Part shown: one piece after another, positions 13-1,102 of the stretch
Numbering within the stretch: the first letter of the stretch is position 1
Layout: each line of letters begins with the position of its first letter
Source: a phage
Strand: one strand, 5' to 3'
DNA length: 1,114 bases
Sequence record: PZ739819.1
Notes under the pieces: model-generated
What the model was told of the DNA's origin: nothing
The model's database searches: none
Seen by the model: the letters and a program-made list of their open reading frames with translations, nothing else
Translations under genes and position numbers: made by a program

Positions 13-40
13 TTGCACGTTTAACAAAAAATGCTATCAT
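13..40 (+). promoter_or_regulatory. Candidate sigma70 promoter: -35 TTGCAC (13..18), 16-nt spacer, extended -10 TGcTATCAT (32..40)
   Basis: Seen in sequence: TTGCAC matches the TTGACA consensus at 3 of 6 positions with the TTG intact; TATCAT matches TATAAT at 5 of 6; a TG dinucleotide sits one base upstream of the -10 hexamer. The predicted transcription start is near 47..48, giving a 5' UTR of about 36 nt. Hexamer-only prediction in an AT-rich intergenic stretch, so chance occurrence is quite possible. Confidence 0.3.
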
Positions 41-72
41 TGTGGCGTTACATACTAACAGCCTTTATATAT

Positions 73-77
73 GGAGG
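73..77 (+). promoter_or_regulatory. Shine-Dalgarno ribosome-binding site (GGAGG) for the CDS starting at 84
   Basis: Seen in sequence: GGAGG at 73..77, then the 6-nt spacer AAGAAA, then ATG at 84..86. The region around the start is A-rich (AAGAAAATGGAAAAAGAAAAA), which is typical of efficiently initiated genes. Confidence 0.7.
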
Positions 78-83
78 AAGAAA

Positions 84-1058
84 ATGGAAAAAGAAAAATT
101 TGATCAGCTAGATGCGGATATTGTTTCTAGCTATCTGGCTACTCGCGGCGTTAAGGGTGATGCTTCTGATATGGGTATCTGGACGGCGCAAGAGCTTCAC
201 AAGATCCGCTCTAATGCTTACGAGAAAGAATATCCGGCAGGTTCAGCGCTTCGTGTATTCCCTGTAACTAATGAGCTTTCTGATACTGATAAGACTTTTG
301 AATATCAGATGTTTGACAGGGTTGGTTACGCAAAAATTATCGCTGATTACACAGACGACCTGCCGACCGTTGACGCGCTGATGTCCAGCGAATTTGGTAA
401 AGTGTTCCGCTTGGGTAACGCGTTCTTGATCTCCATTGACGAAATCAAGGCTGGTCAGCGCACTGGTAAGAGCCTTTCCACTCGCAAGGCAAACGCAGCG
501 CAAAACGCGCATGATCAGGAAGTTAACCGCTTGGTGTTTAAGGGTTCAAAACCGCATAAGATTCTTTCGGTGTTCGAACATCCTAACCTGACAAAGATCG
601 TGTCTTCTGGCTGGTTAAGTAATGATGAAAACACTAAGTTCCCGCAGGCTGCATCTGATGAACTGGAAAAGGCTATTGAAACCATTCAGACCATCACCAA
701 TGGTCAGCACCGAGCAACCAACATCCTGATTCCGCCGTCTATGCGCAAGGTTCTTTCCGTTCGAATGGAAAACACCACTGAAAGTTATCTGGAATACTTC
801 CAGAAACAAAACAGCGGAATCACCATTGACTCAATCGCAGAGCTTGAGGATATTGATGGCGCTGGAACGAAAGGTTGCCTGGTATATGAGAAAGACCCAA
901 TGAACATGTCGATCGAAATTCCAGAAGCATTTAACATGCTTCCGGCGCAACCAAAAGATCTGCATTTCAAAGTTCCGTGCACTTCAAAATGTACTGGCCT
1001 GACGATTTACCGTCCGTTTACGCTGGTGCTTATTACTGGCTTGAAAAAATCAGGTTAA
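84..1058 (+). CDS. Putative phage/prophage structural protein, tentatively a small HK97-fold major capsid protein (encapsulin-like, DUF2184-like); 324 aa
   Basis: Seen in sequence: uninterrupted frame with ATG at 84..86 preceded by GGAGG (73..77) at 6-nt spacing, TAA stop at 1056..1058, intrinsic terminator just downstream. The N-terminus MEKEKFDQLD reads as a natural start. Codon usage is enterobacterial-like. The product call is inference from length (about 320-340 aa, typical of delta-domain-less capsid proteins), acidic soluble composition and the gene-then-terminator context; no alignment was run. Confidence that this is a real CDS is about 0.85; the stated value reflects the added uncertainty in the start and product (product alone about 0.35). 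Confidence 0.75.
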   Translation: MEKEKFDQLDADIVSSYLATRGVKGDASDMGIWTAQELHKIRSNAYEKEYPAGSALRVFPVTNELSDTDKTFEYQMFDRVGYAKIIADYTDDLPTVDALMSSEFGKVFRLGNAFLISIDEIKAGQRTGKSLSTRKANAAQNAHDQEVNRLVFKGSKPHKILSVFEHPNLTKIVSSGWLSNDENTKFPQAASDELEKAIETIQTITNGQHRATNILIPPSMRKVLSVRMENTTESYLEYFQKQNSGITIDSIAELEDIDGAGTKGCLVYEKDPMNMSIEIPEAFNMLPAQPKDLHFKVPCTSKCTGLTIYRPFTLVLITGLKKSG

Positions 1059-1071
1059 TCGTATAACATTG

Positions 1072-1102
1072 GGGAATCCTTAACTGGATTCCCTTTTTTA
1101 TT
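1072..1102 (+). terminator. Rho-independent (intrinsic) transcription terminator
   Basis: Seen in sequence: perfect 8-bp stem GGGAATCC (1072..1079) pairing with GGATTCCC (1086..1093), 5 GC and 3 AT pairs, 6-nt loop TTAACT (1080..1085), immediately followed by TTTTTTATT (1094..1102). It begins 14 nt after the TAA stop. The minus-strand reading lacks a good U-tract, so it is mainly unidirectional for the plus strand. Confidence 0.8.

Follow-up and report, generated by a model that had tools for sequence, protein, structure and literature searches.

The 1,114-nt stretch of DNA analysed here (the window) is best read as the gene for the major capsid protein of a virulent siphovirus of the T1-like type (Hanrivervirus, Drexlerviridae), with the control signals on either side of it, lying inside a normal head-morphogenesis cluster and organised as a promoter-gene-terminator module in which the host sigma-70 polymerase would start transcription and a terminator would limit the mRNA; we put the probability of this reading at roughly 80%. 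The window is 98% identical at the nucleotide level to phages of the T1-like genus Hanrivervirus, and many virulent Hanrivervirus/Drexlerviridae genomes match it at 96-98% identity. Its coding sequence (CDS; 84-1058, on the plus strand like all features below unless stated otherwise) specifies a protein of 324 residues, for which PF09950 was the only Pfam family matched, with 183.8 bits where the cut-off is 26.8 (E = 4.6e-54), and PHROG 264 (major head protein) was matched at E = 2e-99. Residues 3-320 matched the 'Major capsid protein' chains of PDB entries 9kmg, 9kmh and 9kzj at E = 7e-158; these are solved phage capsid structures, such that this comparison, made with sequences only, places a close relative of the protein within an assembled capsid. 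The homologous CDS is annotated as the major head protein in G29-2, T1 and other phages. The protein matched no NCBIfam family, and searching the window against Rfam with E ≤ 1 gave no match. Judged by these profile matches, the protein is a member of PF09950/PHROG 264, the HK97-type head protein of T1-like phages. The major capsid protein of the relative Rogue1 lacks its N-terminal peptides and runs at 30.5 kDa, and N-terminal proteolytic maturation has been reported for it (PMC3496638).

Promoter, ribosome-binding site and terminator

The candidate capsid promoter was compared across 28 representatives sharing 57-93% nucleotide identity in the CDS. It begins with an A-tract (4-8), 5-9 nt upstream of the -35 element, in which AAAA is invariant and around which the flanking columns are near-random (information content 0.07-0.4); this tract is possibly a proximal contact resembling an UP element. 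The -35 element TTGCAC (13-18) contains an invariant TTG and agrees with the consensus at three of six positions, and it is followed after 16 nt (17 nt in two of the 28 representatives) by an extended -10 element (32-40) composed of TG at 32-33, C at 34 and the hexamer TATCAT at 35-40, which matches the consensus at five of six positions. Within the -10, T1, A2, T3 and T6 never change, whereas positions 4-5 vary freely; the TG is nearly invariant. Stronger -35 elements, TTGACC or TTGACG, are present in distant clades and in T1. As the -35 of the window is weak, a consensus scan missed the capsid promoter here, and the same scan listed the homologous site of a distant relative (L040, TTGACC-16-TGcTATTCT).

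Conservation of the capsid promoter exceeds chance, as judged from the alignment of the representatives: its 29 core columns carry a mean of 1.56 bit of information, compared with 0.87 bit for 50 four-fold sites of the same sequences and a maximum of 1.17 bit among 10,000 resampled 29-site means. The positions invariant in all 28 representatives are confined to sigma-70 contact positions and the half-site of a repeat described below. Two promoter-like sites inside the CDS (313-340 and 826-854) were rejected as promoters and serve as an internal control, since they decay neutrally in relatives through synonymous changes between TTG and TCG and between T and C. Transcription probably starts at G47, a predicted position 7 nt past the -10 with a pyrimidine at -1; the pattern Y-G-T-T is conserved 7-8 nt past the -10 in 28 of 28 representatives, including a clade that has no hairpin at this place. 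A literature search found no mapping of transcript 5' or 3' ends for T1-like phages, the phage sequenced in the one transcriptomic paper mentioning Drexlerviridae being T5-like, and the starts and ends of the capsid-unit transcript given here are predictions.

A Shine-Dalgarno site, GGAGG (73-77), lies 6 nt before ATG 84, and sites of the GGAG/GAGG type occupy the same place in relatives. This conserved ribosome-binding site (RBS) and the annotation identify ATG 84 as the translation start, and on the same grounds GTG 42, at the head of the longest open reading frame, was rejected. An intrinsic terminator (1071-1099) begins 12 nt past the stop codon and consists of a stem at 1071-1094, with nine pairs (five G-C) and a 6-nt loop, and a T6 run at 1094-1099. 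Its stem folds at -15.5 kcal/mol (z = -4.56), a stability reached by none of 200 shuffles. All 28 representatives have a hairpin (-8.8 to -16.2 kcal/mol) followed by a run of four to nine T within 70 nt of the stop codon, compared with 0 of 364 control windows of the CDS, and the stems comprise at least seven different sequences, the structure being kept while the sequence changes. The terminator was annotated by ARNOLD in G29-2 and is also annotated in T1. By these comparative measures the terminator exceeds chance, and the promoter-like element, the RBS and the terminator are all under selection. A preliminary description of the window had proposed a promoter, a strong RBS, a CDS and a terminator, and all four were found where it placed them; its picture of a self-contained expression unit holds to this extent, but its hypothesis that the unit points to domestication does not.

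In the mechanism that we propose, host sigma-70 RNA polymerase would start, probably at G47, from a dedicated extended -10 promoter made up of the A-tract, the TTG of the -35, the TG and TATCAT. Translation would be driven by the strong Shine-Dalgarno site and most transcripts would end at the strong intrinsic terminator, the expected outcome being a short, abundant capsid mRNA that sets a high capsid dose relative to neighbouring genes. To our knowledge, T1-like phages lack both a polymerase and a sigma factor of their own.

Hairpin junctions and the 21-nt repeat

The leader contains a hairpin (44-63) that starts 3 nt past the -10 and was identified by folding and by comparison with relatives. 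It is weak in the window (-5.4 kcal/mol, z = -1.2) and reaches -10.9 to -15.1 kcal/mol (z = -2.5 to -4.2) in 19 of 22 closer-clade representatives, with compensatory exchanges of CG for UA and of GC for AU pairs across relatives. Per-sequence folds were used for these values, as the MAFFT alignment, with its unequal loop lengths and some misaligned rows, gave only a poor consensus fold (-1.16 kcal/mol). With hairpin onset 1-3 nt past the -10, the predicted start G47 falls inside the 5' arm, and RNA begun at G47 folds at only -0.6 kcal/mol. In some clades (L026, L037) this hairpin is followed by only a short T-run or by none, and in the clade without a hairpin after the -10 a canonical terminator immediately precedes the promoter instead.

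A second promoter-like element, TTGAAA-17-TAACAT (1041-1069), was identified at the other end of the gene by scanning and conservation. It overlaps the end of the CDS, and its -10 ends 1 nt before the terminator stem. In 21 of 21 closer-clade representatives the pattern TTGnnn-17-TAnnnT stops 0-3 nt short of the hairpin, a spacing that is kept despite differences in the stop-to-hairpin distance and in the C-terminus, and the element is also present in T1. Among 36 terminator-like sites in G29-2 only the capsid terminator has such a promoter partner (background rate 0.4%), and a promoter lying over the terminator was therefore rejected as a general rule for late terminators. Neither this conserved element abutting the capsid terminator nor a leader hairpin placed right after a -10, with the start within its 5' arm, was found described before, and a literature search for promoters overlapping terminator hairpins returned nothing relevant.

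At both junctions the hairpin starts 0-3 nt past the -10. The terminator seen by upstream transcripts at the downstream junction averages -15.8 kcal/mol, compared with only -2.6 kcal/mol for RNA begun at the promoter of this junction itself, and at the upstream junction the corresponding values in most clades are about -11 to -15 kcal/mol and -0.5 to -3 kcal/mol. This suggests that the two -10/hairpin junctions stop incoming transcripts and restart transcription with their own: transcripts arriving from upstream would carry the whole hairpin and terminate, while those begun at the junction would start within the 5' arm and, having no complete hairpin, would continue into the next gene. Because the upstream hairpin is weak in the window, read-through from the cement gene probably contributes to capsid expression as well.

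The spacer and extended -10 of the capsid promoter are spanned by an inverted copy (19-39, minus strand, found by PWM) of a 21-nt direct repeat that occurs genome-wide in Drexlerviridae (aaATAGCACnnnTTGnTAAAA), the minus strand of the window reading TGATAGCATTTTTTGTTAAAC at this place. The identical sequence in G29-2 scores 20.6 against a PWM threshold of 12, the G29-2 genome contains 19 copies compared with 0 in 20 shuffles, and the repeat is present 19-22 times per genome. The window copy is the counterpart of DR7 of phage TLS and runs against the direction of transcription, which sets it apart from nearly all other copies. A -10-like hexamer lies 18-19 nt downstream of 16 of 17 forward copies in G29-2 and of most copies in T1; the window copy does not have this forward arrangement, and when it is read leftward no correctly spaced hexamer follows. 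The 21 nt do not include the A-tract, the TTG or the T6 of the -10, and copies elsewhere in the genome lack the T6. A second inverted copy in the late region, upstream of the tail chaperone gene, has neither the TTG nor the T6, and for this reason the inverted repeat by itself was rejected as a promoter. A promoter whose spacer and -10 are formed by an inverted repeat copy was likewise not found described before. Since the repeat, with about 20 copies per genome, covers the conserved spacer and -10, part of their conservation could serve another role of the repeat and not promoter activity.

The inverted copy may act as an operator-like site for a factor that times the capsid promoter, a candidate being a Cro-like regulator, gp60 of G29-2 and gp23 of T1, which has repeats on both sides of its gene. 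Combining these elements, we tentatively propose, at somewhat less than even odds, that the capsid gene is flanked by two promoter-over-terminator junctions, with the -10 set 0-3 nt before the hairpin, which would act as compact devices that insulate, restart and so decouple the doses of adjacent late genes, and that a single repeat-binding factor, possibly Cro-like, activates early and middle cassettes through some 17-20 forward copies at about -42 of promoters lacking a -35 while gating the capsid promoter.

The leader hairpin could alternatively be a 5'-terminal stem-loop that protects the mRNA against 5'-end-dependent decay, as in the ompA type, or an RNase III site, with transcription starting 3-5 nt past the -10 and the whole hairpin contained in the mRNA. 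The short or missing T-runs of some clades would suit such a role, as would the onset of the hairpin so close to the -10, since a slightly more upstream start would place it exactly at the 5' end; it is also general knowledge that a very abundant mRNA would be well served by a stable 5' hairpin together with a terminator hairpin at its 3' end. A start 3-5 nt past the -10 is, however, atypical for E. coli RNA polymerase, and the Y-G conserved at 7-8 nt agrees with initiation within the stem. Moreover, the hairpin-less clade has an upstream terminator in its place and no other 5' structure, and the annotators of both T1 (15095-15121) and TLS (T35) scored the hairpin as a terminator. On balance we consider a 5'-terminal stem-loop unlikely.

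Less probable still is that there is no functional promoter at all and that the capsid gene is fed only by read-through of late genes, in which case 19-39 would be a repeat copy with another role (stoperator, enhancer or protein-binding site) and the terminator would merely attenuate. The copy number of the repeat, the lack of a promoter call here by the TLS authors and the weak hairpin of the window's clade, which permits read-through from gp31, all speak for this possibility, and the -35 of the window, with its match at only 3/6 positions, counts against a promoter. A repeat with another role does not, however, account for the TTG at its fixed 16/17-nt spacing, the T6 and the A-tract, none of which belongs to the repeat and all of which stay unchanged across the 28 representatives beside unconstrained neighbouring columns, nor for the absence of the T6 from repeat copies elsewhere. 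In addition, a terminator or strong hairpin isolates the capsid gene from upstream genes in most clades, and because of this the most abundant virion protein would be left there without a source of transcript. We retain the dedicated sigma-70-type promoter as the preferred reading.

Genomic setting and comparison with known phages

In both G29-2 and T1 the gene order on one strand is TerS, TerL, portal, head morphogenesis, protease, cement and major capsid protein (MCP), followed by connector and tail genes. This synteny is kept in 74-76 of 77 related loci, with head morphogenesis, protease and cement genes upstream on the same strand and, on the downstream side, a conserved trio of genes homologous to G29-2 gp34-gp36, and all 77 viral loci are phage head modules. 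The RBS of the next gene (GGAG, 1103-1106, from the G29-2 annotation) lies at the end of the window, and its ATG is the first base after it, position 1115, which corresponds to the annotated gp33 of G29-2 at locus position 10115; the product is a DUF7444 protein of 90 residues (Pfam PF24231, E = 7e-38). No copy of the capsid gene was found in 5,426 complete E. coli genomes, and among 185,579 GTDB species representatives it was matched by one MAG fragment only.

The suggestion of the preliminary description that the gene is a domesticated or repurposed capsid-like shell (an encapsulin, a capsid-forming satellite island or PICI, or a gene-transfer agent) standing alone with its own promoter and terminator, drawn solely from the monocistronic look of the window, is for practical purposes refuted, as the near-identity to many virulent Drexlerviridae genomes, the position between protease/cement and connector genes in nearly all loci, the rarity of the gene in cellular genomes and the match to virion capsid structures all argue against it, Pfam and NCBIfam gave no encapsulin or gene-transfer-agent capsid family, and the genomic-context comparison that it had called for found homologues consistently embedded in phage late gene clusters rather than on a chromosome or island without a full morphogenesis module. 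The promoter-gene-terminator module is a family-wide trait of T1-like phages and is no sign of domestication.

The capsid gene of the window is thus of the standard virion type and comes from a well-known phage family, which removes a false lead on a domesticated shell protein, and capsid dosage is recurrently set by framing the gene with a dedicated promoter and terminator within a late cluster. Should the junction model hold, very short natural parts of about 60 nt would both terminate and restart transcription and would be of use in engineering phages and designing synthetic operons, and the model would explain the 'terminator' that lies between a promoter and its gene in T1 and TLS. With the promoter geometry described for the 21-nt repeat, the temporal programme of T1-like phages can be tested directly.

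A predicted annotation of the capsid unit already exists in phage T1 (AY216660.1), with a promoter at the homologous site (15062-15089), a terminator (15095-15121), an RBS, the MCP (15140-16099) and a second terminator (16107-16137). T1 resembles the window in its homologous gene, in the order of its signals (TTGACG-16-TGcTATTAT, hairpin, RBS, CDS and terminator), in its use of the host sigma-70 polymerase and in its head-gene neighbourhood, while the window differs in its weaker -35 (TTGCAC) and degenerate leader hairpin. The T1 annotation is purely predictive, leaves a terminator between the promoter and its gene unexplained and does not include the second promoter-like element at the capsid terminator. 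In the form in which it is cited in a paper on TLS, the T1 late region was described as a set of terminator-flanked 'transcriptons' with RpoD promoters (Roberts et al. 2004, as cited in PMC11447400). The TLS authors, who applied strict criteria, called no promoter here, did not assert transcriptons and considered that the repeat might be a stoperator, an enhancer or an UP-like element (PMC11447400). TLS nevertheless parallels the window, with DR7 corresponding to 19-39, T35 to the leader hairpin and T36A to the capsid terminator (PMC11447400, Table S1). Unlike in the TLS account, the repeat is here inverted and embedded in a conserved sigma-70-type core.

Textbook knowledge provides two further parallels. 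In gene VIII of the Ff phages (M13/fd), as in the window, the dose of a major structural protein is set by upstream promoters and a strong terminator right after the gene, but these are filamentous single-stranded DNA phages with an unrelated coat protein and a promoter cascade that yields nested transcripts, and we know of no report of a -10 set against a hairpin there. The premise of the preliminary description that capsid genes lack a promoter of their own is not general, with T7 gene 10 as the counterexample. This major capsid gene has the phi10 promoter and the s10 RBS upstream and the Tphi terminator downstream, an arrangement that yields the most abundant late mRNA. It thus resembles the window as a major capsid gene of a late region with its own strong promoter, a strong RBS and a hairpin terminator directly downstream. 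T7 differs in using its own single-subunit polymerase and class III promoters, whereas the signals of the window are those of host sigma-70, and the proteins and control sequences of the two are unrelated.

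Genomic setting of the capsid gene

The window contains one real gene and extends precisely from the preceding gene's stop codon to the last base before the start codon of the gene that follows. The longest open reading frame runs from GTG 42 to 1058; the capsid start is ATG 84, giving a protein of 324 aa, as supported by public annotation and a conserved Shine-Dalgarno sequence (GGAGG, 73-77) spaced 6 nt from the ATG. An ATG at 1110-1112, 5 nt ahead of the start annotated for the following gene (1115), is out of frame, and the start at 1115 (MAKEK...) is backed by relatives. 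The capsid protein matched Pfam PF09950 'Major capsid protein' (4.6e-54), PHROG 264 'major head protein' (2e-99), and the chains named major capsid protein in PDB entries 9kmg, 9kmh, and 9kzj (7e-158). Many Hanrivervirus genomes, including phiE31-2, G29-2, pSf-1, and aaroes, were 96-98% identical in DNA over the full window length, and 220 phage records matched in total. Lower-identity matches included 19 records assigned by their labels to Campylobacter phages and one to a Streptococcus phage; such hosts would not be expected for capsid genes of the Drexlerviridae type, and mislabelling or contamination may be the reason.

The preliminary description had proposed a domesticated or repurposed capsid-like shell and suggested looking for stand-alone homologues. 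In G29-2, the same-strand order is TerS, TerL, portal, head morphogenesis, protease, two cement/minor-capsid paralogues, the major capsid protein (gp32), DUF7444, and then connector and tail genes, with predicted terminators punctuating the head-gene block; the layout around the T1 capsid gene is the same. Same-strand genes for head morphogenesis, protease, and cement lay upstream in 74 of 77 related IMG/VR loci (53-99% aa identity); downstream, 75-76 had same-strand homologues of G29-2 gp34, gp35, and gp36. None of the 77 carried the gene alone, outside a head cluster. A match to the capsid gene was absent from 5,426 complete E. coli genomes, and the 185,579 species-representative genomes yielded a match only in one short MAG contig. 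Domestication is therefore rejected, because the homologues are embedded in phage head clusters. One IMG/VR locus (L010, ~2900-3924) has 11 extra nt between the RBS and ATG, lacks one base of the spacer A-run, and has a capsid ORF truncated to 307 aa; these anomalies look like sequencing or assembly errors, and the locus was left out of the statistics.

Conservation of the capsid promoter and terminator

The promoter upstream of the capsid CDS comprises TTGCAC (13-18), a 16-nt spacer, TG (32-33), and TATCAT (35-40). It was missing from a consensus scan of the window that did list the terminator, because its -35 matches only 3/6 positions; T1 and more distant clades have the better TTGACC or TTGACG. 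To compare upstream regions, 28 representatives sharing <96% mutual CDS nucleotide identity, and 57-93% identical to the window, were anchored on the -10. The -35 TTG, the TG, -10 positions T1, A2, T3, and T6, the spacer motif TTTA.C.A, and an A-tract of four to five bases located 5-9 nt 5' of the -35 were invariant or nearly so, while regions further upstream, the gap between A-tract and -35, and -10 positions 4-5 were unconstrained. Mean information was 1.56 bit over the 29 core columns versus 0.87 bit over 50 four-fold-degenerate sites of invariant residues in the same genes, where the maximum of 10,000 resampled 29-site means was 1.17. What had been offered as a hexamer-level prediction thus goes beyond coincidence, and this comparison of sequences shows that its sigma-70 contact positions are under selection. 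Two promoter-like matches inside the CDS, TTGACA-16-AATTAT (313-340; 10/12) and TTGACT-17-GATATT (826-854; 9/12), are most likely due to chance, as synonymous positions within them drift freely (TTG to TCG and T6 to C, or the reverse).

The intrinsic terminator begins 12 nt past the TAA stop (1071-1094) and consists of a 9-bp stem and 6-nt loop followed by six T. Its predicted fold of -15.5 kcal/mol (z = -4.56) was equalled in stability by 0/200 shuffles. A hairpin of -8.8 to -16.2 kcal/mol with 4-9 T was found ≤70 nt past the stop in 28/28 representatives and in 0/364 equally sized CDS windows. The stems comprise at least seven different sequences among the 28, so structure is kept despite sequence turnover; the predicted terminator would be efficient. 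The self-contained unit of promoter-like element, strong RBS, CDS, and terminator put forward earlier thus stands, with promoter and terminator conserved in all 28.

Promoter-hairpin junctions on both sides of the gene

In 19/22 closer-clade representatives, a hairpin of -10.9 to -15.1 kcal/mol (z -2.5 to -4.2) with compensatory pairs (CG to UA and GC to AU, or the reverse) begins 1-3 nt past the capsid -10. T1 and TLS annotators scored this hairpin as a terminator, which has a terminator separating a promoter from its own gene. A Y-G step 7-8 nt past the -10 was kept in 28/28 representatives; in the window it points to G47, within the 5' arm of the hairpin, as the expected start of an active promoter. 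RNA beginning at the Y-G folds at merely -0.5 to -3 kcal/mol. Most simply, the hairpin would halt transcripts arriving from the cement genes, while RNA initiated at the junction would escape termination. The hairpin is weak in the window's own clade (-5.4 kcal/mol, z = -1.2 in the window; -6.6, z = -2.65 in a close relative, L002), so some read-through from gp31, a cement gene, is likely in the window. In the distant clade the hairpin is absent, with a canonical terminator directly 5' of the promoter instead. Locus L040 of this clade (~55% aa identity) has a terminator upstream of its capsid gene followed by TTGACC-16-TGcTATTCT (2887-2952), and the clade has a single cement gene.

A second promoter-like element detected by the scan (TTGAAA-17-TAACAT, 1041-1069) stops 1 nt short of the capsid terminator stem. 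In 21/21 closer-clade representatives, a TTGnnn-17-TAnnnT motif likewise leaves 0-3 nt between its end and the stem, even though the stop-to-stem distance varies (6-16 nt), C-termini differ, and the codons containing the TTG are not the same. In the -10, T1, A2, A5, and T6 are kept and positions 3-4 vary; the T1 counterpart is TTGTCT-17-TATTAT. In G29-2, the capsid terminator is the only one of 36 terminator-like sites to have such a promoter-like partner (background chance ~0.4% per site). In transcripts from upstream the terminator has a mean of -15.8 kcal/mol; RNA from the predicted within-stem start (~1076) has a mean of -2.6 kcal/mol. Downstream of the capsid gene, the distant clade has the conventional order of terminator and then separate promoter. 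In L040 (3936-4000) and L049 (~3920-3975), another locus of that clade, the downstream terminator precedes a separate extended -10 promoter, e.g. TTGCAT..TGcTTTAAT.

At the TerL-portal junction of G29-2 (10986-11040), a weak forward copy of the 21-nt repeat described below precedes a perfect TATAAT located 3 nt before a terminator hairpin, with the TAGCAC of the repeat 17 nt 5' of the hexamer. This could be a third junction of a -10 set against a hairpin; the T1 repeat scan gave no copy near the corresponding junction.

The 21-nt repeat and comparison with T1 and TLS

The TLS genome contains 21 occurrences of a 21-nt repeat, aaATAGCACnnnTTGnTAAAA (PMC11447400). Window positions 19-39 are an inverted copy, the counterpart of TLS DR7. 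Scanning with a position weight matrix built from the TLS copies gave 19 hits in G29-2, against none in 20 shuffles, and 22 in T1. Forward copies in both genomes (G29-2 1253-49572; T1 102-48733) share a layout of repeat, 18-19 nt, a (C/T)AT(A/T)(A/G)T hexamer, a ~35-nt leader with a stretch resembling tcatcgaaacga, and an RBS; the 18-19 nt usually hold a G+C-rich inverted repeat that annotators label a terminator. These copies lie at about -52 to -32 (centre ~-42) of predicted promoters that have no normal -35. Class II activators typically bind near -42. This position favours a role for the repeat as an activator site or -35 substitute over one as a stoperator.

Only two inverted copies occur in the late region, upstream of the capsid and tail-chaperone genes, both common to G29-2 and T1. 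The capsid copy covers the spacer and -10, and the TTG, T6, and A-tract fall outside it. The second (G29-2 19005-19025; T1 18832-18852) follows the major-tail-protein terminator and precedes the tail-chaperone gene, adjoining the RBS of that gene; having neither a TTG -35 nor T6, it forms no sigma-70 promoter. The repeat by itself is therefore not a promoter. We infer that the capsid promoter consists of a sigma-70 core holding an embedded repeat, and that a protein bound at this position would gate it. A candidate binder is a Cro-like HTH regulator (G29-2 gp60, T1 gp23; PHROG 2856, 3e-78 for gp60), whose gene has repeats on both sides (G29-2 38036-38056 and 38523-38543; T1 35977-35997 and 36442-36462), as expected of an autoregulated repeat-binding protein. 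Such a protein, bound to the inverted repeat, may time the capsid promoter.

Our literature search found neither experimental mapping of transcription starts or 3' ends in any T1-like phage nor a prior description of the junction geometry or the repeat-promoter relationship. A terminator-flanked "transcripton" organisation has been described for the T1 late region; with strict promoter criteria, its presence in TLS could not be confirmed by the authors of the TLS report (PMC11447400). In the re-annotated T1 record (AY216660.1), the homologous stretch carries a predicted promoter (15062-15089), terminator (15095-15121), RBS, major capsid CDS, and terminator (16107-16137), so that the self-contained expression unit corresponds to an existing, purely predictive annotation. 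The capsid unit is thus of a known kind, already annotated in the type phage T1.
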